Made by a program: the position numbers and the translations under genes. Positions 13,282 through 60,222 of a stretch of 64,000 bases of DNA are shown piece by piece. The DNA is from Escherichia phage vB_Eco_F31. Position 1 is the first letter of the stretch. The number at the start of each line of letters is the position of its first letter. The stretch lies in the sequence record OP870147.1. One strand, given 5' to 3'. Under the pieces are notes generated by a model. It made no database searches. It was not told the origin of the DNA and worked only from the letters and a program-made list of their open reading frames with translations.

Positions 13282-13305
13282 GGGAGACTTCGGTCTCCCA
13301 TTTTT
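13282..13305 (+). terminator. rho-independent terminator GGGAGAC-UUCG-GUCUCCC + U-tract after gene 23
   Basis: 7-bp GC-rich stem, UUCG loop, followed by ATTTTT. Confidence 0.6.
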
Positions 13306-13309
13306 GGTT

Positions 13310-13579
13310 TTATTTCTGTGCAATTTCGATGTAAGTTTTCAAAATATTTTGCCAATTAGGCATACCTTCTTGGACATATGCTGGAGAACCGTCTTTGTTT
13401 TTGAATGATGCAAGTTTATCAGTGGCCCAATAACCTTTAGCTCGAGCTTCAGAATCAACTTTCATCCATACTTTGTTGAAGGCATTACCATTAACTTTTG
13501 CACCATATTTTTCTACTAACTTAACTGCTTCAGCTTCCAGAACTTTTAAAGTATCTCTTAAGAAACGTGCTTTAGTCAT
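13310..13579 (-). CDS. hypothetical protein (89 aa) at the locus where T4 carries segD
   Basis: ATG at 13579 preceded by AGGAG and an early-promoter-like motif; no GIY-YIG/HNH motifs seen. Confidence 0.6.
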   Translation of the reverse strand: MTKARFLRDTLKVLEAEAVKLVEKYGAKVNGNAFNKVWMKVDSEARAKGYWATDKLASFKNKDGSPAYVQEGMPNWQNILKTYIEIAQK

Positions 13580-13609
13580 TTTGTTTACTCCTCTGTAGTT
13601 GATAAGTCT

Positions 13610-13639
13610 ATAGTATCACATACCAAATACGTTGTAAAC
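13610..13639 (-). promoter_or_regulatory. early-promoter-like motif GTTTAC-N18-TACTAT
   Basis: Minus strand GTTTAC ... TGATACTATAGAC, then AGGAG and ATG of the 89-aa ORF. Confidence 0.45.
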
Positions 13640-16083: not shown

Positions 16084-16109
16084 ATTATACCATCAAAAAA
16101 TGTAAAGCA
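16084..16109 (-). promoter_or_regulatory. middle-promoter-like motif (MotA box TGCTTTA, 13 nt, TATAAT) upstream of rnlB
   Basis: Minus strand aatatGCTTTAcattttttgatggTATAATg. Confidence 0.4.
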
Positions 16110-16111
16110 TA

Positions 16112-16363
16112 TTAGAACTTGATTTCTATCCAATGACCATCACGCTGGTCGTGATTAATTTTATACTGAAAGCCATTATCACGTAACCACTGCCCGACTT
16201 GCTCAGTGATAGTTAAATCATTCTTTGACGGGTAGTACGTGAATTGTGTCTGGCCTTTATCAGCGGCTTTCTCTGCCATCACAGAGAAGTTAGTAATAAA
16301 ATCACTCAACAAATTAGCTTTAGTGGCCAGAGCCCTTTCTCTTAATTCCTGTGCAAAACTCAT
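16112..16363 (-). CDS. hypothetical protein (83 aa)
   Basis: ATG at 16363 overlaps stop of upstream ORF (ATGA); position between hoc and rnlB. Confidence 0.55.
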   Translation of the reverse strand: MSFAQELRERALATKANLLSDFITNFSVMAEKAADKGQTQFTYYPSKNDLTITEQVGQWLRDNGFQYKINHDQRDGHWIEIKF

Positions 16364-16554
16364 TTCTTCACCTTTTTGTTAATCAAACGTTTACGGTATA
16401 CAACTTTTTCTTTTGCTTTAAACTTTGACCGAGCTGTCTCGGCTTTAGTCCATAGTAATCCAACTTCTTTAGGTTGTAAACCGATTTTTTGAGCAATTTC
16501 TACGAATGAAAATCCCGCCTCATGTAATGTATAAACTTCAACTTCAGCTCTCAT
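16360..16554 (-). CDS. hypothetical small protein with helix-turn-helix-like segment and basic tail (64 aa from ATG at 16554)
   Basis: Track start at 16560 is TTG; ATG 6 nt in; segment GFSFVEIAQKIGLQPKEVG resembles an HTH; lysine-rich C-terminus. Confidence 0.5.
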   Translation of the reverse strand: MRAEVEVYTLHEAGFSFVEIAQKIGLQPKEVGLLWTKAETARSKFKAKEKVVYRKRLINKKVKK

Positions 16555-21523: not shown

Positions 21524-21548
21524 ATTATACATAGGTTGCCTTGAAGCA
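21524..21548 (-). promoter_or_regulatory. middle-promoter-like motif (MotA box TGCTTCA, 12 nt, TATAAT) upstream of uvsY
   Basis: Minus strand gtaaTGCTTCAaggcaacctatgTATAATgg directly after gene 25 stop. Confidence 0.45.
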
Positions 21549-21947
21549 TTACACTCTATTGCTTGACGCTAACTGAAGTTTAATTTGTTCAATATCGTCA
21601 GGGTTGTCTACGACCGAAAATCTAATCTCTACTATAACCGTATAGTCATCATATACTGGCGTTACACTTACAGAAAGTTTGTCGATGCGTGGCTCATAGT
21701 TACGAACAGCTGCCTGGATATTACGCTCAATCGTATCGGCTGTAAGTGGTGTCATGTTCTCGAAAAGTTCATCGACCAAATCACATCCAAATTCAGGGTC
21801 GAAGGGGCGTGAGCCTTTTCTAGTTGTCACTATGCCAAGAAGACTATTTTTAATAGAACGAAGTCCTACAGAACGAGCAACGTCCTTGTTCCAATCCATA
21901 CGCATTTCTGGGTCGATATCTGAATAAAGTTTATTGATATTAGACAT
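21549..21947 (-). CDS. 25: baseplate wedge protein gp25
   Basis: 132 aa, same length as T4 gp25; directly downstream of gene 26 (ATG overlaps its stop). Confidence 0.85.
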   Translation of the reverse strand: MSNINKLYSDIDPEMRMDWNKDVARSVGLRSIKNSLLGIVTTRKGSRPFDPEFGCDLVDELFENMTPLTADTIERNIQAAVRNYEPRIDKLSVSVTPVYDDYTVIVEIRFSVVDNPDDIEQIKLQLASSNRV

Positions 21948-29227: not shown

Positions 29228-29257
29228 ATAGTATCACACATCCATGTGTTTGTAAAC
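29228..29257 (-). promoter_or_regulatory. early-promoter-like motif GTTTAC-N18-TACTAT
   Basis: Minus strand GTTTAC ... TGATACTAT followed by ATCAACAACATGAGGAAA leader; directly after alt stop. Confidence 0.45.
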
Positions 29258-35738: not shown

Positions 35739-36104
35739 TTAGATATCAAATTCGTTAAGAACTACATCAAAGATTGCTTCGAGATGTTCAGGTTTAGCTC
35801 GGTTACTCAGGATATGACGAATCCAAGTTTTAACCAGAAGTTTACGATTAACACCATTCCAGCAAGGATGAGTACCTAAATCACGCTGACGGAAATCATC
35901 ATCTAATGCAATTTTAAAATTTGAACCTTCCATCGTGATTGAAACCGTGATACCATTTTCAAATCGCATATAAACGTAATTAGGAGTCATGCACTGTTCG
36001 ATTTCACAAACTGTACCGTTTTCGTGTTTCCATAAGCAAATAACTTCAGAAGAACCAGCAATACCGTTAGAAACATATTTACGTTCGAAGTTGGTGTAGT
36101 TCAT
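35739..36104 (-). CDS. hypothetical protein (121 aa)
   Basis: ATG at 36104 with GGAG RBS and early-promoter motif upstream. Confidence 0.55.
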   Translation of the reverse strand: MNYTNFERKYVSNGIAGSSEVICLWKHENGTVCEIEQCMTPNYVYMRFENGITVSITMEGSNFKIALDDDFRQRDLGTHPCWNGVNRKLLVKTWIRHILSNRAKPEHLEAIFDVVLNEFDI

Positions 36105-36145
36105 TTTATTCTCCAGATGTTTAAGTTGTTTGTTGGTACAGGTCT

Positions 36146-36174
36146 ATAATAACATAACCTGTACCAAAGTAAAC
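36146..36174 (-). promoter_or_regulatory. early-promoter-like motif GTTTAC-N17-TATTAT
   Basis: Minus strand GTTTAC ... TATTATAGACCTGTACCA; -10 bracketed by inverted repeat GGTACAGG/CCTGTACC. Confidence 0.45.
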
Positions 36175-36178
36175 TGGT

Positions 36179-36547
36179 TTATGCAACTTTAATCCAATTG
36201 TCTAAATTTAAAACACCTTTGGCTTTCATTTTTTCTATCAGGTTATCTGCTGTAATGCGTCCATTTTGATACCATGTAACATCTTCAGAGTAACCAGTTT
36301 CTTCGTCAACATATGTTTCTGAACGAATTTTACCGGTAATAATAGTTTTTAATTCGTATGTGTCACCTGTGAAAAAGTTTGCTAACACAATTTTCCAAGA
36401 GAAATCATCAGAAGGACCTTCAGGGGTCATACAACCTACGAACTCAAATTGCTCTTTGTATAACATCCACTGGAATTCTTTAATTTCGATAGCTTTATAA
36501 CCATCGTGGTCTTTACATTTGATGTATGAGTTCAGATTGATTTTCAT
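36179..36547 (-). CDS. hypothetical protein (122 aa)
   Basis: ATG at 36547 with GGAG RBS and early-promoter motif upstream. Confidence 0.55.
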   Translation of the reverse strand: MKINLNSYIKCKDHDGYKAIEIKEFQWMLYKEQFEFVGCMTPEGPSDDFSWKIVLANFFTGDTYELKTIITGKIRSETYVDEETGYSEDVTWYQNGRITADNLIEKMKAKGVLNLDNWIKVA

Positions 36548-36589
36548 TTTGTTCTCCAGGTTGTTTTATTGATTAGATGGTACAAGTCT

Positions 36590-36618
36590 ATAGTAACACA
36601 TCCTACAGGAGAGTAAAC
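36590..36618 (-). promoter_or_regulatory. early-promoter-like motif GTTTAC-N17-TACTAT
   Basis: Minus strand GTTTAC ... TACTATAGACTTGTACCA upstream of the 122-aa gene. Confidence 0.45.
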
Positions 36619-36654
36619 ATCTTTTTAAACTTTTTCTGCCCTAAACGCACAAAA

Positions 36655-36672
36655 GGGAGACCGAAGTCTCCC
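36655..36672 (-). terminator. rho-independent terminator GGGAGAC-UUCG-GUCUCCC + UUUU (minus strand)
   Basis: Same 18-nt hairpin as at 13282, 51876 and 60200; follows stop of the 59-aa ORF. Confidence 0.55.
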
Positions 36673-37888: not shown

Positions 37889-37913
37889 ATAATACCATAC
37901 TATTCGTAAAGCA
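37889..37913 (-). promoter_or_regulatory. middle-promoter-like motif (MotA box TGCTTTA, 12 nt, TATTAT) upstream of gene 31
   Basis: Minus strand atatGCTTTAcgaatagtatggTATTATtaa, then AAGGA and ATG of gene 31. Confidence 0.4.
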
Positions 37914-37915
37914 TA

Positions 37916-38212
37916 TTACATAAGAAGCAAACGTTCTACCGGAGTACCATCAACCGAAATTACTTTATCAAGGCGGAAAGAACGCCACTGACCTAACTTG
38001 GTATCGAATGCTCGAACTGATTCACGAGGTTCAGAACGAACTTCTGATGCCGGATTGTTATTTTCATATTTGACTTCAAGTTCATCGCGAGAAGCAAACA
38101 TAGTGCGTACCTCACCGTTAGCCTTTTCAAATACAACACAATGAACGCCTACAGACAGAATAGTTTTAATACGTTCACGAAGAACCATAGTTTCTTGTTC
38201 AGTTAAAATCAT
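37916..38212 (-). CDS. hypothetical protein (98 aa from ATG at 38212), position of T4 31.1
   Basis: Track start at 38224 is GTG; internal ATG at 38212. Confidence 0.5.
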   Translation of the reverse strand: MILTEQETMVLRERIKTILSVGVHCVVFEKANGEVRTMFASRDELEVKYENNNPASEVRSEPRESVRAFDTKLGQWRSFRLDKVISVDGTPVERLLLM

Positions 38213-40144: not shown

Positions 40145-40173
40145 TTCGATTTCCTCATTGTATTGGTAGAGTT

Positions 40174-40203
40174 ATAGTATCACAACTCCACCATGTTGTA
40201 AAC
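40174..40203 (-). promoter_or_regulatory. early-promoter-like motif GTTTAC-N18-TACTAT
   Basis: Minus strand GTTTAC ... TGATACTAT, leader ...CAATGAGGAAATC then ATG of 78-aa gene. Confidence 0.45.
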
Positions 40204-42271: not shown

Positions 42272-42299
42272 TTAGATTTCCTCAATTATCCATAGGAGC

Positions 42300-42329
42300 A
42301 TTATACTCTGCTCCCGAGAGTTTGTAAAC
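42300..42329 (-). promoter_or_regulatory. early-promoter-like motif GTTTAC-N18-TATAAT
   Basis: Minus strand GTTTAC ... TATAAT (perfect -10), then GAGGA and ATG of 99-aa gene. Confidence 0.5.
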
Positions 42330-43705: not shown

Positions 43706-43735
43706 ATAGTAACACCTTCCTTGGTGTTTGTAAAC
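43706..43735 (-). promoter_or_regulatory. early-promoter-like motif GTTTAC-N18-TACTAT upstream of alc
   Basis: Minus strand GTTTAC ... TACTAT, then GAGGAG and ATG of alc; directly after rnlA stop. Confidence 0.45.
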
Positions 43736-44888: not shown

Positions 44889-44918
44889 ATTGTACCACAA
44901 TCCTTGTGGTATGTAAAC
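44889..44918 (-). promoter_or_regulatory. early-promoter-like motif GTTTAC-N18-TACAAT upstream of rnlA
   Basis: Minus strand GTTTAC ... TACAAT; spacer contains inverted repeat CCACAAggaTTGTGG; then GAGGA and ATG. Confidence 0.45.
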
Positions 44919-50255: not shown

Positions 50256-50839
50256 TTATAAACGCTCTCAGTAATTTCGGTGAGTTCATCGATTCTGTAG
50301 TAATGAGATTCTACCATAGAACGTTGAAGCATAATATCTTGGATGAAATCTTTATCAAGTTGAACGTCTGAATTAACACGACATTTCTTAATGATTTTAG
50401 TCATCACGATTTCATCGGCATAAGGCAGTGCTTGTTTTAATAAAGCGGGGCCACCAATAACAGATACATCAACATGTTCAGTAGAAAGTTTAAACGGTAC
50501 ATCAGTTGCAGGGCTAAACAGGTTAATTTCATCACCTGTTACCAAGGTAATAAATTCAGATTGGGTGATATAGAACCGTGCAAGTTCATCAGTTTTAGTC
50601 CTAGGCAGTTTTCTGGCCATATCAGTGACAACCACATGAGTACGATCTGGGAGTAGACGAGGTAATGATGCAAATGTATTAGCACCCATAACCATTACAG
50701 TGTTTTTAGTGCGAGCAACAAAGTTACTCATATCTTGTTTGATATGCTTCCATGGAAGTCCATCACCTAATCCAAAAGCATATTCCAGTTTATCATCAAC
50801 TGTTTTAGATGGTGCGCATGCGAATACTAATTTAAGCAT
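50252..50839 (-). CDS. frd: dihydrofolate reductase
   Basis: 195 aa from ATG at 50839 (MLKLVFACAPSKTVD, cf. T4 Frd MIKLVF...); the 223-aa track ORF adds a 28-aa N-terminal extension overlapping the upstream gene. Confidence 0.85.
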   Translation of the reverse strand: MLKLVFACAPSKTVDDKLEYAFGLGDGLPWKHIKQDMSNFVARTKNTVMVMGANTFASLPRLLPDRTHVVVTDMARKLPRTKTDELARFYITQSEFITLVTGDEINLFSPATDVPFKLSTEHVDVSVIGGPALLKQALPYADEIVMTKIIKKCRVNSDVQLDKDFIQDIMLQRSMVESHYYRIDELTEITESVYK

Positions 50840-51082: not shown

Positions 51083-51331
51083 TTATTTCCTCAGATTTTT
51101 CTTAACAACTTTCCAATCAGCTTTAAACGATTCAACATCAGAGTGGTGAATCCAGAATCCTGCACTTTCACCATCTTCGTAGAGTGGACATCCATCACAT
51201 TCTTCGTTCCAACCCATTTCACGTAAAGCTTCTTCAGCTTGTTCAAGGAGTTCAGCGTCTTTACCAACGATGTTGAAGTACCATTTACCTCTAACTTCAG
51301 AATCTTTGATGCTCTGGCGTTGCAATCTCAT
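51083..51331 (-). CDS. hypothetical protein (82 aa from ATG at 51331)
   Basis: Track start 51346 is GTG; ATG at 51331 has AGGAG RBS and early-promoter motif upstream. Confidence 0.5.
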   Translation of the reverse strand: MRLQRQSIKDSEVRGKWYFNIVGKDAELLEQAEEALREMGWNEECDGCPLYEDGESAGFWIHHSDVESFKADWKVVKKNLRK

Positions 51332-51364
51332 TTTATTCTCCTTCACTTTTGATTTGATAGGGCT

Positions 51365-51394
51365 ACTATAACATAACCCTATCTTGTTATAAAC
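51365..51394 (-). promoter_or_regulatory. early-promoter-like motif GTTTAT-N18-TATAGT
   Basis: Minus strand GTTTAT ... TATAGT; -10 bracketed by inverted repeat GATAGGG/CCCTATC (51356-51383). Confidence 0.4.
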
Positions 51395-51786
51395 TACTTT
51401 TTAAAAGTTTTTTGCAAAAGTTCGATGATTTCGTCGACGTTGGTTTCATCTACGACACAATGTATTTTTGTTACACCTAAAGTTATACCTTCGTTAGTAG
51501 GTTGAGGCTTTACTATATCTACCTCAGTAAAGTATTTGAACTCGTCAGGATAAATCTCAAAATAAGTTTCAATTTCACCACCGGCAGAACATACAGTACC
51601 ATCTTCCATAGTTACACTTACTACGTTTGACGTATCGCTATCATAATCAGGTTCCATTCCGTTTACAACAAAACTAGGCCCATGGAGTTCAATCAATTTT
51701 AACATCTTAGCGTTATTGTGTGGTGCTTCTTGAACAAAGTCATCTTTAAATAAAGGGTTAATGATATAAGATTTTCCGATTTCCAT
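51394..51786 (-). CDS. hypothetical protein (130 aa)
   Basis: ATG at 51786 with AGGA RBS and early-promoter motif upstream. Confidence 0.55.
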   Translation of the reverse strand: MEIGKSYIINPLFKDDFVQEAPHNNAKMLKLIELHGPSFVVNGMEPDYDSDTSNVVSVTMEDGTVCSAGGEIETYFEIYPDEFKYFTEVDIVKPQPTNEGITLGVTKIHCVVDETNVDEIIELLQKTFKK

Positions 51787-51815
51787 TTTGATTTCCTCAT
51801 GTTGTTGATAGGTCT

Positions 51816-51844
51816 ATAGTATCATGTTTAAAGGAAAAGTAAAC
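51816..51844 (-). promoter_or_regulatory. early-promoter-like motif GTTTAC-N17-TACTAT
   Basis: Minus strand GTTTAC ... TACTATAGACCTATCAACAACATGAGGAAATC then ATG of the 130-aa gene. Confidence 0.45.
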
Positions 51845-51875
51845 AACTTTTTCGGCAATTTACAGATACTCAAAA

Positions 51876-51893
51876 GGGAGACCGAAGTCTCCC
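51876..51893 (-). terminator. rho-independent terminator GGGAGAC-UUCG-GUCUCCC + U-tract (minus strand) after gene 32
   Basis: Identical 18-nt hairpin 7 nt after gene 32 stop, followed by UUUUG. Confidence 0.55.
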
Positions 51894-54161: not shown

Positions 54162-55079
54162 TCAGAATTCATTAATTACACTTGTTAATTTAGAAAGACC
54201 AGATTTTACAAAGTATGAATAAATCTTGCCTTTAGGTTGTGGTTTATATGAGTTATAATACTCTATAATGGTTGAAGCAATATTATCAGGGATATAATCA
54301 AAATCAATGAGAACCAAATTTTCTTGATACCGTTTATATTCTTCTGCACTTAATAATACTTCAGCTTGAGAACGATCGTTGGCAATTGCTTCAATAATCG
54401 TTGTTTTCATGCTCGGAGTTCGTTCACCATCAACTCTGGTAAACCAGAAGTCACCACGAACTCGAACCGATGCAACGCCGTCTTTACGGTCACCTTTAAG
54501 AATTTTAGTCATGCAATCAATTTCAGCAGAACCGTTCTTAATTTTAACCCATTTTTTCTGTGGTGGCGACCACTGTTTAACGTTAGGATATTTGTGTAAT
54601 TGTGTAAAGTCACCATCTGATGCAACAATACATACTTTATGTCCGGCTAATGACAAATATTTAGTTAATACACCGATATGGTCATCCGCTTCATACTTGT
54701 CAATATCCATTACAACGTATGGCATGTATTTCTTAATCTCATCAACAACTTGATGGAGTGCAGTAAAATATCCTTCCCAATCCCACTTTGAAGCTTCACG
54801 ATCGGTTTTACGATTTTTCTTGTAATAGTAAGCAAAGTCACGACGCCAATAACCCGAAGTAGCATTATCCATACACAATACAAATTTTGTATAGCCTTGC
54901 TTACGGAACATCACTACGTTTTTACGAATTGAATTCAAGATTACATGGCGAACCATCGGAACGGTAATTTTATCGCCGTCTTCAAAGTTGTTTAATGCGG
55001 CTGCCAATGCAATGTTACTAAAGTCAGCAAGTGCAATACCTTCTTTGTAATCTTCATCCAACATCATTTCTAAATCCAT
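54162..55079 (-). CDS. rnh: RNase H (5'-3' exonuclease / flap endonuclease)
   Basis: 305 aa, same as T4 RNase H; early-promoter motif upstream. Confidence 0.85.
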   Translation of the reverse strand: MDLEMMLDEDYKEGIALADFSNIALAAALNNFEDGDKITVPMVRHVILNSIRKNVVMFRKQGYTKFVLCMDNATSGYWRRDFAYYYKKNRKTDREASKWDWEGYFTALHQVVDEIKKYMPYVVMDIDKYEADDHIGVLTKYLSLAGHKVCIVASDGDFTQLHKYPNVKQWSPPQKKWVKIKNGSAEIDCMTKILKGDRKDGVASVRVRGDFWFTRVDGERTPSMKTTIIEAIANDRSQAEVLLSAEEYKRYQENLVLIDFDYIPDNIASTIIEYYNSYKPQPKGKIYSYFVKSGLSKLTSVINEF

Positions 55080-55111: not shown

Positions 55112-55141
55112 ATAGTAACACACTCATTTGAAAGCGTAAAC
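55112..55141 (-). promoter_or_regulatory. early-promoter-like motif GTTTAC-N18-TACTAT upstream of rnh
   Basis: Minus strand GTTTAC ... TGTTACTATAGAC; back to back with plus-strand late promoter of gene 34. Confidence 0.45.
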
Positions 55142-55182: not shown

Positions 55183-58100
55183 ATGGCCGACATCAAACGT
55201 AAGTTCAGAGCCGAAGACGGTCTGGACGCCGGTGGCGACAAGATTGTTAACGTAGCATTAGCCGACCGTACAGTAGGTACTGATGGCGTAAACGTTGACT
55301 TCCTGGTACAAGAAAACACCGTTCAAGTATATGATTCTACGCGTGGATATAACAAAGGATTTGTTGTTCTTTATGACAACCGTTTATATCAAGCAATAAA
55401 TGATATCGTGTCTCCTTCCGGGGCATTTAACCTTTTACAATGGCGTGCAGTTCGTACTGATGCACAATGGATAACTGTCGCTTCTGGGACTTATCAACTT
55501 TCTTCAGGTGAATCTATTTCGGTTAACACTGGTGCCGGCAATGATATGGTTTTCACGTTGCCAAATACGCCGGTTGATGGTGATACTGTTGTTTTGGCTG
55601 ATATTGGTGGAAGAACCGGGACAGTTAAAGTACAGATTAACGCGTCTGTGCAGAGTATTTTAAACTTTAGAGGTGAACAAGTTCGTACAGTTTTAATGAC
55701 GCGCCCACGTTCACAACTATTGTTTGTGTTTAGTAATCGTTTGTGGCAGATGTATATTACCGATTATGGTAAAGAATCAATCACTGTTACACCTGCGTCA
55801 CCATATCAAGCACAAGCAAATGATTTTATCGTTCGTCGTTTTACTAGTGCAGCACCAATCAACATTACACTTCCACGTAATGCTAACAACGGTGATATAA
55901 TCCACCTAGTTGATTTAGATAAATTAAACCCACTGTATCATACAATTGTTAAAACATTTGATGATACAACGTCTATTGGTGAAGTCGGGACTCATATTGC
56001 CGAAGGCAGAAATGACTCTGACGCGTTTTTTGTTTTTGATGCTGCAAGTAGTTTATGGCGTATATGGGAAGGCGACCAGAAATCGCGTCTTCGTATTATC
56101 CGTGCGGATTCAAATATTCGTCCAAATGAAGAAGTTCTTATTTTTGGCACAAATAACGCTACAGCCGGAACTATTAATCTTACGCTGCCCACCGGAATTT
56201 TGAGTGGTGACACTGTTAAAATTTCAATGAACTACATGCGTAAAGGCCAAACAGTAAAAATTAAAGCTGCCGAAGGTGATACAATTGCTTCTTCTGTTGC
56301 ATTGCTTCAGTTCCCTAAACGTTCTGAATATCCACCTGATGCTCAATGGGTCTCTGTTACTGAACTAGAATTCAATGGCACTACTTCATATGTTCCTGTA
56401 TTAGAATTAGCGTATATCGAAGACACTGATTCTGACACTCACTATTGGGTTGTGCAACAGAATGTCCCTACAGTAGAACGTGTTGATGCCGGAACTGATG
56501 CTACACGAGCTCGTTTAGGTGTTATTGCTCTTGCTACTCAAGCGCAAGCAAATGCTGATTTAGAGAATACTCCAGCTAAAGAAGTGGCTATTACTCCTGA
56601 AACGTTGGCAAATCGTACAGCAACTGAAGCTCGACGTGGTATCGCTAAAATTGCTACAACAGCACAAGTTAACCAGAATTCCACTGCAGCATTTGTGGAT
56701 GATACTATTGTTACGCCTAAAAAATTAAATGAGCGTACAGCAACTGAAACTCGTCGTGGTCTTGCTGAAATTGCTACTCAGGCTGAAACTGATGCCGGTC
56801 TTGATGACACAACGATTATTACACCTAAGAAATTGCAGGCACGTCAGGGTTCTGAAACACTATCTGGTATAGTTAAATATGTATCAACTACTTCTGCTAC
56901 ACCTGCCGCGACTCGTGGAGCTGCAGGTACTAACGTTTATAATAAAACCGTAAATAATTTAACTATTTCTCCTAAAGCCCTTGACCAATATAAAGCAACT
57001 TATTCTCAACAAGGTGCAGTAATTTTAGCTGTTGATAGTGAAGTAATTGCCGGCCAATCTCAAGCAGGTTATTCTCACGCTGTAGTAACTCCTGAAACAC
57101 TACATAAGAAAACTTCCACAGATGGACGTATCGGTTTAATTGAAATTGCTACACAAGCAGAAACTAATGCTGGGACTGATTATACACGTGCAGTAACGCC
57201 TAAGACGTTAAATGATAGGAAAGCTACGGAAGGATTATCCGGCATAGCCGAACTTGCTACGCAAGTTGAATTTGATACTGGAACTGATGATACTCGTATC
57301 TCAACTCCACTGAAAATTAAAACTCATTTTGATTCTTCTGACCGTACCAGTGTTAATTCTGATTCCGGACTTATTGAAGAAGGAACCTTGTGGAACCATT
57401 ATACTCTTGATATTTCTAAAGCAAATGAAACACAACGTGGTACACTTCGAGTAGCGACTCAGACAGAATCTAATGCAGGAACTTTAGATGATGTTCTTAT
57501 TACTCCTAAAAAGCTTTTAGGGACTAAGTCAACTGAAACGTCTGAAGGCGTAATTAAGGTTGCTACTCGGGCCGAAACTGTAACAGGAACTTCTGCTAAT
57601 ACTGCTGTATCGCCTAAGAATTTAAAATGGATTGTCCAGAATGAACCAACATGGGCTGCTACTACGGCAATTCGTGGATTCGTTAAAACTTCATCTGGTT
57701 CAATTACATTCGTTGGTGACGATACTCAAGGTAGTACCCAGGATCTGAATCTTTACGAGAAAAATAGTTATGCTATTTCTCCATATGAATTAAACCGTGT
57801 ACTTGCTAACTATTTGCCATTAAAAGCAAAAGCTGCTGACGCAAATTTATTAGATGGCATAGATTCATCTCAGTTCATTCGTAGGGATATTGCACAGACG
57901 GTTAATGGTTCACTAACCTTAACGAAACAAACTAATCTGAGTGCCCCTCTTGTATCATCTAGTACTGCTACATTTGGTGGTTCAGTTTCGGCAAATAGTA
58001 CATTAACTATTTCTAATACTGGAACGGCAACTCGTCTGATTTTTGAGAAAGGACCTCAAACTGGAACTAACCCAGCGCAGACGATGTCTATCAGAGTTTG

Positions 58101-60199: not shown

Positions 60200-60222
60200 G
60201 GGAGACTTCGGTCTCCCATTTT
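60200..60222 (+). terminator. rho-independent terminator GGGAGAC-UUCG-GUCUCCC + U-tract after gene 35
   Basis: Identical 18-nt hairpin followed by ATTTTT, then late promoter of gene 36. Confidence 0.6.

Follow-up and report, generated by a model that had tools for sequence, protein, structure and literature searches.

Putative sigma-70-dependent early promoters and their stem-loops in an RB69-like stretch of a T4-type phage genome

Early promoters of T4-type phages are well represented in the literature. In RB69 they carry GTTTAC at -36 to -31 and an UP-like A-tract, prefer C at -3 to -1, and in 13 of 57 cases stand before novel ORFs (Nolan 2006, Virol J 3:30; PMC1524935). Promoter-early stem-loops (PeSLs) were described in RB49/phi1 by Arbiol 2010 and in T4/PST and KVP40/nt-1 by Comeau 2014 (PMC4122927), and both studies reported PeSL mini-circles and shuffling. 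The T4/PST consensus is TTTACW-N17-TAYWAT plus an SD and a start codon (Comeau 2014, PMC4122927); in phi1/RB49 the stem-loop lies most commonly in the gap that separates -35 from -10 or over the -10 box, with G-T pairs, and one phi1 stem-loop (PeSL211/210) terminates transcription in a lacZ reporter (Arbiol 2010). For e, soc, 49 and I-TevI of T4, experiments have shown that a late promoter lies within a hairpin by which read-through transcripts conceal their ribosome-binding site (PMC3014915).

The window analysed here, meaning the whole 64,000-nt stretch of DNA, shares 95.6% identity with RB69 across 43 kb. It contains twelve sites that correspond one-to-one with early promoters predicted in RB69 (Nolan 2006, Additional file 3) and are near-identical to them in sequence:

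13610..13639, minus strand: putative early promoter before an 89-aa ORF, between genes 23 and 24 (37.0 bits; RB69 Pe:109605)
16452..16481, minus strand: putative early promoter inside gene 24.3 (21.3 bits; RB69 Pe:112451)
29228..29257, minus strand: putative early promoter upstream of alt.-3 (DUF5498) (RB69 Pe:125323)
36146..36174, minus strand: putative early promoter upstream of 30.7 (RB69 Pe:131670)
36590..36618, minus strand: putative early promoter upstream of 30.8 (RB69 Pe:132117)
40174..40203, minus strand: putative early promoter between cd.3 and cd.2 (RB69 Pe:134561)
42300..42329, minus strand: putative early promoter before a 99-aa and a 63-aa ORF (RB69 Pe:136687)
43706..43735, minus strand: putative early promoter upstream of alc (RB69 Pe:138093)
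44889..44918, minus strand: putative early promoter upstream of rnlA (RB69 Pe:139277)
51365..51394, minus strand: putative early promoter upstream of frd.1 (DUF5417), GTTTAT/TATAGT (28.6 bits; RB69 Pe:145300)
51816..51844, minus strand: putative early promoter upstream of frd.2 (39.8 bits; RB69 Pe:146013)
55112..55141, minus strand: putative early promoter upstream of rnh, at the divergent junction with gene 34 (RB69 Pe:149309)

Very probably, these sites act as the sigma-70-dependent early promoters (Pe) of a T4-type, RB69-like phage, and each runs on into a short 5'UTR; the genes downstream of them are orthologues of T4 early genes or small accessory ORFs. A T4-type early promoter had been proposed in the preliminary description, and the identity to RB69, the match to RB69 Pe sites, the T4 counterparts and the absence of late boxes all argue for that reading. 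Promoter activity is our inference from sequence and homology; so are recognition by the polymerase, the position of the start, the early timing, cleavage by RegB and recombination at the sites. Because the RB69 sites are HMM predictions, the match to them shows prior knowledge and not activity.

RB69 and the window have in common their -35 box, GTTTAC, an A-tract of UP-like character and a bias towards C at positions -3 to -1. In T4 the motif recurs at orthologous junctions, for instance Pe133.3 between cd.3 and cd.2 (the T4 sequence record names an 'early promoter Pe133295 between cd.2 and cd.3'), and its early promoters resemble those of the window in box sequences, spacing and extended -10, with 34 of 35 predicted T4 sites on the early-gene strand. 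The two differ in the preferred -10 box and in what comes after it (TACTAT and then AGAC(C/T)T in the window; in T4 more often TATAAT or TACTAT, with ACAAC or TACCC next) and in the repeated leader (ACAACTATCAACTACTGATACGGATTTGGAGAATAAAATG in T4, ATCAACAACATGAGGAAA in the window). Published work covers the early promoters of T4, their counterparts in RB69 and the PeSL cassettes, and the observation is already known; as the same sites were predicted in RB69 in 2006, the motif set is real but ordinary, and current understanding is unchanged by it. For annotation, the twelve sites would mark out the units of early transcription along this part of the genome and show which small accessory ORFs own a putative promoter. 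No usable maps of TSSs or 3' ends across the whole T4 genome turned up in a literature search.

Exact matches to GTTTAC-N16-19-TANNAT number 11 in the window, all on the minus strand, against a chance level of 1.03 +/- 0.93 (maximum 4) in 100 dinucleotide shuffles. When both strands were scanned with an independent weight matrix, built from 116 promoters that all belong to other phages, exactly 12 matches were obtained on the minus strand (18.6-39.8 bits, the top score being that of 51816-51844) and none on the plus strand, while ten 64-kb Markov null sequences gave no match and a maximum of 11.3. Eleven sets of coordinates had been put forward in the preliminary description: ten have the exact motif, and the eleventh, 51365-51394, has one mismatch per box but is still recovered by the matrix. 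The list had omitted one site, 16452-16481. A generic TTGACA/TATAAT scan of the region is not enriched (77 matches, 64 +/- 9 expected), so the promoter signal depends on the T4-specific consensus. A relaxed two-box search allowing one mismatch in GTTTAC returned 53 minus-strand and 36 plus-strand matches, compared with 38 +/- 7 in simulation; this is mostly noise, and the weight matrix was therefore used instead.

The -35 region is exactly GTTTAC at 11 of the 12 sites and GTTTAT at the other, and the distance from it to the -10 box is 17 nt at three sites and 18 nt at nine. TGn precedes TA(C/T)(T/A)(A/G)T in 10 of 11 aligned sites, the exception being 42300 (GAG); 16452 has GAT in this place. 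Aligned on the -10 box, the sites read TGn and TAYTAT, then AGAC(C/T)T, then ATCAAC. Upstream of the -35 box, A+T content averages 74% over 25 nt (62% +/- 9% in 25-nt windows), a run of at least four A occurs upstream at six sites, and the matrix carries information at about -40. On the early-promoter reading, unmodified host RNA polymerase holoenzyme would recognise the sites right after DNA injection through the A/T-rich UP-like region, TTTAC(A/T) with its conserved preceding G, the TG of the extended -10 and TA(C/T)(T/A)AT. Transcription would start about 7 nt downstream of the -10 box, at the A of ATCAAC, and every copy would open a new early transcription unit, several of them before small accessory ORFs.

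At 11 of the 12 sites an SD-ATG follows 20-36 nt past the predicted +1, and leaders at 11 of the 12 are A/C-rich and unstructured, with an end that is either GAGG (ATGAGGAAA...) or the RegB-type GGAGAAYAAAATG. Folded from their own predicted starts, nine of 11 leaders give 0 to -0.9 kcal/mol and the other two -2.9 and -3.6. The RegB/S1 cleavage consensus is GGAGRAYARAA (PMC3014915); leaders match it at 36102, 36545 and 51329, where RegB may cleave. The 36590 leader ends in GGAGAACAAAATG, that of 36146 in GGAGAATAAAATG and that of 51365 in the same GGAGAATAAAATG, which is RegB-type.

The GTTTAC box had also been described as often overlapping the stop codon of the preceding gene, and this holds at four sites (29228, 42300, 44889 and 51365), where a TAG donates its G to the box; the stop is that of alt at 29228 and that of denA at 44889. 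At three further sites (36146, 40174 and 43706) a TAA stop lies 2-4 nt upstream of GTTTAC. Two sites fit the early-promoter explanation less well: 16452 falls within a coding region, some 100 nt ahead of where 24.2 starts, and its leader, at about 82 nt, is long, while 51365 is mismatched in both boxes.

The top-scoring site lies between gene 32 and frd.2, with the following features around it:

51871..51893, minus strand: predicted intrinsic terminator after gene 32, GGGAGACTTCGGTCTCCC + TTTTG (the best terminator-like match)
51787..51815, minus strand: discriminator AGACCT and predicted 23-nt 5'UTR, from the sequence
51394..51786, minus strand: frd.2, 130 aa (Pfam FRD2 PF03197, E = 2.5e-35; tblastn match to T4 frd.2)

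The promoter itself consists of GTTTAC (51844-51839), a 17-nt spacer, TGA (51824-51822) and TACTAT (51821-51816), and sigma-70 geometry places the probable +1 at the A at 51809. The 18-nt leader ATCAACAACATGAGGAAA occupies 51809-51792, with the SD GAGG at 51798-51795 and the ATG at 51786-51784, and a transcript from the promoter's own start folds at only -0.3 kcal/mol. An identical leader in two copies had been reported, and the second is indeed found at 29228. The gene 32 terminator sits 27 nt upstream of the -35 box and has an identical copy at 36650-36672, after 30.9 and upstream of the 36590 promoter. Judged by its sequence, the gene 32 terminator with the 51816 promoter is a complete putative terminator-promoter cassette, and frd.2 is the gene that the putative promoter would drive. 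RB69 differs here in carrying RB69ORF245c; the window is without it, so the gene-32-proximal promoter would drive frd.2 directly. A read-through transcript at 51816 can pair UUUUCCU with GAGGAAA, but weakly (-7.7 kcal/mol, z about -2.3).

Taken together, promoter and stem-loop correspond to the PeSL cassette of the literature. The published composite, an upstream stop in an A/T-rich region followed by -35, -10, stem-loop, SD and start codon, is like that of the window, whereas RB49/phi1 PeSLs, with TTGACA and G-run/C-run stems, are unlike it. The stem-loops are of two types. One is a predicted true terminator upstream of the promoter (36650-36672 after 30.9 and 51871-51893 after gene 32); the other, a predicted hairpin found where promoter and preceding ORF abut, is interwoven with the spacer and the start region. 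Repetition of promoter and leader could also supply the short homology through which ORFs are gained or lost, and replacement or indels of small ORFs are found among the few events examined. RB69ORF245c is flanked on both sides by ATCAACAAATGAG(A)GGAAA, a near-copy of the 18-nt leader, and both the window and JK45 lack the ORF and keep one leader copy. JK45 has identical flanks at the 51816 site around a different spacer and -10 (TTCTTCCCTGGATGTGTTAGTAT vs TTTTCCTTTAAACATGATACTAT).

These two events, the unrelated spacer and leader variants at orthologous genes of different phages, and the published mini-circles and shuffling (Arbiol 2010; Comeau 2014) would fit cassettes that are mainly recombination modules, whose repetition is kept for insertion, deletion or swapping of ORFs and whose promoter activity is secondary. 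We regard this as falling only slightly short of evenly balanced, and it complements the early-promoter explanation and does not exclude it. It is at odds with the distribution of information in the matrix, which is maximal at the polymerase contact positions (-35, TG, -10) while the spacers are the most variable part, and with the fact that every copy faces a gene start with an SD; moreover, two events were examined. That the sites are instead MotA-dependent middle promoters, gp55-dependent late promoters or products of chance is extremely improbable. A Mot box, taken as (a/t)(a/t)(a/t)TGCTTtA centred near -30 and replacing the -35 box, is absent at 11 of the 12 sites; GCTT at -30 of 55112 could make that promoter dual early/middle. 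The late promoter motif, taken as TATAAATA at -13 to -6, occurs at none of the 12. Elsewhere the window does contain six middle-like sites on the minus strand, and it contains late-box matches (14 plus, 4 minus), none of either kind falling in the -10 region of the 12 sites. Chance is excluded by the motif counts and the weight-matrix nulls.

A stem-loop spanning the -10 box is present in about a third of 125 non-redundant T4-like phage promoters. In the window embedded stems reach z <= -5 at 36146, 40174 and 51365 and z near -2.4 at 42300, 44889 and 51816; no significant stem was found at the other six of the 12 sites, 55112 among them. The 36146 stem is a perfect 11-bp helix across the -10 box, TTGGTACAGGT (36167-36157) with ACCTGTACCAA (36143-36133; -17.9 kcal/mol, z = -5.0). 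At 40174, GGTGGAGTT (40192-40184) pairs across the -10 box with AACTCTACC (40173-40165; -16.9 kcal/mol, z = -5.0), and the T4 orthologue Pe133.3 has the stem GGTAGAGTT/AGCTCTACC. At 51365, GATAGGGTT (51383-51375) pairs with AGCCCTATC (51364-51356; -16.3 kcal/mol, z = -6.2), and orthologues retain the pairing in different sequences. The remaining stems are GGGAGCA/UGCUCCU across the -10 box at 42300 (z = -2.4) and UACCACAA/UUGUGGUA inside the spacer and extended -10 at 44889 (z = -2.4). T4/PST stems lie just upstream of the promoter (PMC4122927), whereas many of the T4-/RB69-type stems here cross the -10 box. We first read these hairpins as undescribed because the 2014 paper places stems upstream of the promoter, a reading we abandoned since such positions are already given as the commonest by Arbiol 2010. 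A role as canonical intrinsic (Rho-independent) terminators was also rejected, as no U-run follows the embedded stems: their 3' arms continue into A/C-rich sequence such as ATCAAC or CAAACAAC, and the only run of four T, at 43706, is not next to a stem.

Spacers pair with their own downstream sequence far better than with swapped partners, at -10.1 vs -6.5 +/- 0.7 kcal/mol in the window (n=11) and -12.1 vs -7.5 +/- 0.4 in T4 (n=35), each with 0/3000 permutations as low, and across the 125 non-redundant promoters own-spacer complementarity reaches z = -13.5 with controls far weaker or null. A search for related loci with Cd.2 yielded 2, and a DNA-pattern scan of IMG/VR, used in its place, 71. 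One account of this complementarity is that the stem-loop acts as RNA in read-through transcripts, where the 3' end of the upstream cistron would be terminated, insulated or protected by it; folding is confined to read-through RNA, since transcripts begun at the promoter do not contain the 5' arm. We hold this tentatively, with the balance leaning somewhat against it. It agrees with the concentration of hairpins of -10 kcal/mol or below at promoters abutted by the upstream ORF (44% vs 6% otherwise, p = 4e-5), with orthologues that keep the pairing despite different sequences and registers, and with the lacZ reporter termination by one such stem-loop (Arbiol 2010). Helices overlap the SD in 16 of 53 cases, and spacer-to-own-SD pairing has z = -5.4; a 3' arm over the SD would block downstream translation from read-through RNA. 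Sense-strand mismatches in real helices are 12 G.T and 2 A.C, against 11 and 20 in swapped controls, although a strand-asymmetric mutation spectrum could account for part of this G.T bias. The count of mismatch types was used to separate RNA from DNA because the difference between sense and antisense duplex energies, significant in T4 (1/5000 permutations), is weak in the pooled set (z = -2.2), which itself tells against an RNA role, as do the missing U-runs and the half of the window promoters that have no significant stem. Nor does a column-wise complementarity map of the 125 promoters aligned on the -10 box reveal a fixed register (best z = 2.9), so column-wise covariation cannot be shown. 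The inverted repeats could alternatively act in DNA, by forming a cruciform or by serving as a site for a recombination or regulatory protein, an idea raised for GGGG...CCCC stems as a speculation by Arbiol et al. 2010 and compatible with own-specific complementarity on both strands (antisense z = -10.9). This is quite improbable: arm sequences are unconserved between promoters, which leaves no common protein site, hairpin loops with a median of 12 nt disfavour the extrusion of a cruciform, and the preference for G.T mismatches is limited to the sense strand.

The geometry is like that of T4 e, soc, 49 and I-TevI in that the promoter lies within the putative hairpin, and in a minority of helices it extends to a 3' arm over the SD; unlike those cases, the promoters here are early and most stems end before the SD. 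An extension of this idea, which we consider rather unlikely, is that the spacer of T4-/RB69-type promoters doubles as the 5' arm of a hairpin that forms only in read-through RNA, and so switches between two mRNA isoforms. Read-through RNA would then adopt the fold, which would protect or insulate the 3' end of the upstream cistron and, in roughly one in three of the helices found, conceal the downstream SD, whereas RNA started at the promoter would be unstructured and freely translated. Such a switch would extend the principle of e, soc, 49 and I-TevI to many early genes and could play a part in shutting off early proteins after early promoters fall silent. Since -10-overlapping PeSL stems are published for RB49/phi1, the new parts would be the isoform-specific RNA function and the generality in T4/RB69. 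The quantitative observations, namely the -10 stem-loops, their placement at ORF-abutting promoters, the G.U bias and the leader-flanked indel, add to those already published and may help the study of insulation between dense early units in T4-like phages.

The preliminary description had also pointed to ORFs unlike those of T4 at these loci, and tblastn against 126 kb of T4 early regions indeed gave no match for the 89-aa ORF after 13610 or the 99-aa ORF after 42300, in a search that covered T4 loci other than the 23-24 region. The 63-aa ORF next to the 99-aa ORF is likewise without a match in the T4 loci searched, whereas the genes flanking the pair do match. The 89-aa and 99-aa ORFs represent phage families of unknown function, and the former is intact in the window, where the RB69 annotation has two tiny ORFs.

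The sequence GTTTAC-N16-19-TANNAT occurs 11 times in the window, on the minus strand in 11/11 cases, against an expectation of 1.03 +/- 0.93. Ten of these matches coincide exactly with sites among the eleven to which the preliminary description had assigned a common promoter-like architecture; the eleventh (16452-16481) was missing from its list. The other listed site, 51365-51394, has the variant boxes GTTTAT...TATAGT and is not an exact match, but it is recovered by a weight matrix. This matrix was trained on 116 non-redundant promoters from other T4-like phages, and is therefore independent of the window. Scanning both strands with it gave exactly 12 minus-strand matches (18.6-39.8 bits) and no plus-strand match, and ten 64-kb null sequences likewise gave none (null maximum 11.3). 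The promoter in front of frd.2 has the highest score of the 12.

51816-51844, minus strand: frd.2 promoter, GTTTAC TTTTCCTTTAAACA TGA TACTAT, then AGACCT, then ATCAACAACATGAGGAAATCAAA, then ATG
16452-16481, minus strand: twelfth promoter-like site, inside gene 24.3, equal to RB69 Pe:112451

Many Escherichia and Shigella T4-like phages match this region at 97-98% identity; RB69 matches it at 95.6% over 43 kb, and T4 at about 78% in the alignable parts. The region's minus-strand gene order is rnh-dsbA-33-59-32-frd.2-frd.1-frd-td-nrdA-nrdB-denA-rnlA-alc-...-pseT-...-cd-...-30.x-30-alt, with frd.2 (Pfam FRD2) behind the top-scoring promoter. For RB69, Nolan et al. 2006 (PMC1524935) gave 57 predicted early promoters in their text and 58 in the supplement. 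In these, GTTTAC occupies -36 to -31, an UP-like A-tract is present, C is preferred at -3 to -1, and 13 of them precede novel ORFs. Placed on the RB69 sequence, the supplementary coordinates correspond one-to-one with all 12 window sites, including 16452 and the degenerate 51365 (Pe:145300), which supports the earlier reading of the motif as a T4-type early promoter. The T4 record itself annotates an 'early promoter Pe133295 between cd.2 and cd.3', and across 126 kb of T4 early regions a simple predictor picks out 35 sites of this kind: 34 face SD-ATG, and the remaining one (T4 151262) lies inside gene 34. The composite unit is the promoter-early stem-loop cassette (PeSL) described by Arbiol et al. 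2010 and by Comeau et al. 2014. In order, it comprises a stop codon surrounded by A/T-rich sequence, -35, -10, stem-loop, SD and ATG; the T4/PST consensus is TTTACW-N17-TAYWAT (Comeau et al. 2014). Given the RB69 predictions, the T4 counterparts and the published PeSL unit, the motif is a real feature that was interpreted correctly, and one already published for the nearest relative, RB69.

Promoter anatomy was read from 11 sites aligned on the -10 box, with 16452 treated apart. Upstream of the -35 element the sequence is 74% A+T (62% in the background). The element itself reads GTTTAC(A/T) and is followed by a variable spacer; TG stands at -15/-14 in all but one of the 11 aligned sites and is lacking at 16452. 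The -10 box takes the form TA(C/T)(T/A)(A/G)T, often followed by AGAC(C/T)T, and the A of ATCAAC is the predicted first transcribed base. The overlap of GTTTAC with the preceding stop codon was also confirmed: TAG contributes the shared G at four sites, and TAA lies 2-4 nt upstream at three others. So was the identical 18-nt leader, ATCAACAACATGAGGAAA, common to the 29228 and 51816 copies, and neither of the ORFs described as non-T4-like (89 aa, behind 13610; 99 aa, behind 42300) has a match in the T4 early regions searched; both belong to phage families of unknown function. The 89-aa ORF (phrog_6003) is intact at about 13310-13580 (minus strand). RB69 has two tiny annotated ORFs (188c, 189c) at 109291-109531 in its place, and this counterpart may be disrupted or mis-annotated.

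Host sigma-70 holoenzyme very probably initiates early transcription at each of the 12 sites, judging from sequence and homology. That they are instead middle promoters, late promoters or chance matches is most improbable: the motif count and the matrix scan speak against chance, Mot-box middle-like and late-box matches do exist in the window, but none falls within the 12 promoters, the late TATAAATA box is absent from all of them, and GCTT at -30 is found only at 55112.

16084-16112, 21524-21551, 37889-37916, 50308-50334, 54255-54282 and 57398-57426, minus strand: six middle-like Mot-box sites

The site at 37889-37916 lies upstream of gene 31. In the rnh promoter (55112-55141, minus strand) GCTTTCA directly follows GTTTAC; as this resembles a Mot box, the promoter might be both early and middle.

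The 5'UTR measures 20-36 nt at 11 sites and about 82 nt at 16452, where the leader (site and leader together span 16380-16481, minus strand) holds a small hairpin, CCGAGACAGCTCGG, ahead of the 24.2 start. Folded from +1, 9 of 11 leaders give 0 to -0.9 kcal/mol, and those of 29228 and 55112 give -2.9 and -3.6 kcal/mol respectively; short, largely unstructured leaders would favour efficient translation at every site but 16452. The ribosome-binding sites include two recurrent types. One is (AT)GAGGAAA, with exact ATGAGGAAA in 3/12 leaders (29228, 40174, 51816) and two further window copies outside these promoters. The other, GGAGAAYAAAATG, has three copies (zero expected), which fit the strong RegB/S1 cleavage consensus GG*AGRAYARAA (PMC3014915).

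36102-36114, minus strand: leader ending in GGAGAAYAAAATG
36545-36557, minus strand: leader ending in GGAGAAYAAAATG
51329-51341, minus strand: leader ending in GGAGAAYAAAATG

These GGAG-type leaders are probable RegB targets. The other leaders have GAGG, of the ATGAGGAAA type, in which the GGAG core is absent, so that the early genes may split into RegB-sensitive and RegB-resistant groups. T4 has a stereotyped long leader of its own, ACAACTATCAACTACTGATACGGATTTGGAGAATAAAATG, a near-identical repeat behind at least five early promoters (T4 ~27051, 55355, 70667, 163644 and 167057; loci L016, L017, L018).

Several promoters contain an inverted repeat with its 5' arm in the spacer; the 3' arm spans roughly -8 to +8 or covers the SD. 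On folding, 6 of the 12 have no significant stem.

36133-36167, minus strand: stem in the 36146 promoter, 11 bp, perfect, fold z = -5.0
40165-40192, minus strand: stem in the 40174 promoter, 9 bp, fold z = -5.0
51356-51383, minus strand: stem in the 51365 promoter, 9 bp, fold z = -6.2
42294-42315, minus strand: stem in the 42300 promoter, 7 bp, fold z = -2.4

Each spacer was paired with the region downstream of its own promoter or of another promoter (swapped), using the window, T4 loci L016, L017, L002 and L018, and IMG/VR loci L019-L089; the pooled set was drawn from T4, the window, the related phage JK45 and 71 IMG/VR loci.

Spacer pairing energies (kcal/mol)
Window, n = 11: own -10.1, swapped -6.5 +/- 0.7, 0/3000 permutations
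T4, n = 35: own -12.1, swapped -7.5 +/- 0.4, 0/3000 permutations
Pooled, 125 non-redundant: own -6.71, swapped -4.25 +/- 0.18, z = -13.5

Controls with a reversed 3' region (z = -3.7) or the upstream region were far weaker or null. About 1/4 to 1/3 of promoters carry a -10-spanning helix, and orthologues keep the pairing while sequences and registers change, as in the frd.1 promoter (window GATAGGGTT/AGCCCTATC; RB69 GATAGGGCT/AGCCCTATC; T4 AGGGTA/TACCCT; locus L010 AAGGCTAT/ATAGCCTT; locus L005 ACAGGGTAAT/ATTACCCTGT). Pairing at <= -10 kcal/mol goes with promoters abutting an upstream same-strand ORF (44% vs 6%, p = 4e-5). The 3' arm covers the SD in 16/53 cases, including the T4 regB promoter, in which CAGTTAAGAGGAG is the partner of the spacer, and the alc promoter on each of two T4-like contigs from IMG/VR (L020 ATCCTCATCAG/CTGATGAGGAT; L076 TCTCCTCAT/ATGAGGAGA); the T4 alc promoter also has strong spacer-downstream pairing (-13.7 kcal/mol). 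Spacer-to-own-SD pairing has z = -5.4, and 26% of spacers contain an anti-SD 4-mer, compared with 11% of random windows. At 51816, pairing is possible between UUUUCCU in the spacer and GAGGAAA (-7.7 kcal/mol, z = -2.3).

That these inverted repeats work at the DNA level is unlikely: internal mismatches on the sense strand are G.T in 12 cases and A.C in 2 (11 and 20 in swapped controls), a bias that points to function as RNA. Action in read-through transcripts, which is compatible with the promoter reading, is a tentative proposal to which we give somewhat less than even weight. The stems would be candidate attenuators, 3'-end protectors or SD masks, and since no U-run was found after them, no single mode of action is favoured. 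We dropped the idea that -10-spanning stems were undescribed, their positions being already published for phi1/RB49, where stems are commonest between -35 and -10 or over the -10 box, with G-T pairs, and where one -10-region stem terminates transcription in a reporter (Arbiol 2010). For the T4/RB69 group, stems have been drawn upstream of the promoter (Comeau 2014), and the literature examined held no counterpart of the present statistics for such phages. What is added here is limited to extending -10-spanning stems to this group, tying them to promoters lying directly against an upstream ORF, and documenting the mismatch bias.

A role of the cassettes as recombination modules is also compatible with the promoter reading and, on sequence comparison, has slightly less than an even chance. 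Gene 32 is followed by the terminator GGGAGACTTCGGTCTCCC-TTTTG, which has an exact copy ahead of the 36590 promoter; this hairpin, with a UUCG tetraloop and T-rich tail, occurs four times (zero expected).

36650-36672, minus strand: GGGAGACTTCGGTCTCCC terminator, just upstream of an early promoter
51871-51893, minus strand: identical copy, just upstream of an early promoter
13282-13304, plus strand: near-copy, tail ATTTT, late-gene region
60200-60222, plus strand: near-copy, tail ATTTT, late-gene region

In RB69 (record region compared, 145660-146075), ORF245c (228 nt) lies between gene 32 and frd.2 with direct leader repeats ATCAACAAATGAG(A)GGAAA on both sides; the window (51787-51815) and JK45 lack it and retain one leader copy, which fits gain or loss of the ORF by recombination between the repeats. 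The JK45 counterpart of the frd.2 promoter (21817-21845 of its locus) is identical in terminator, -35, leader and frd.2, and differs in spacer and -10 box (TTCTTCCCTGGATGTGTTAGTAT in JK45, TTTTCCTTTAAACATGATACTAT in the window), so that the promoter itself contains a small patch of mosaicism.
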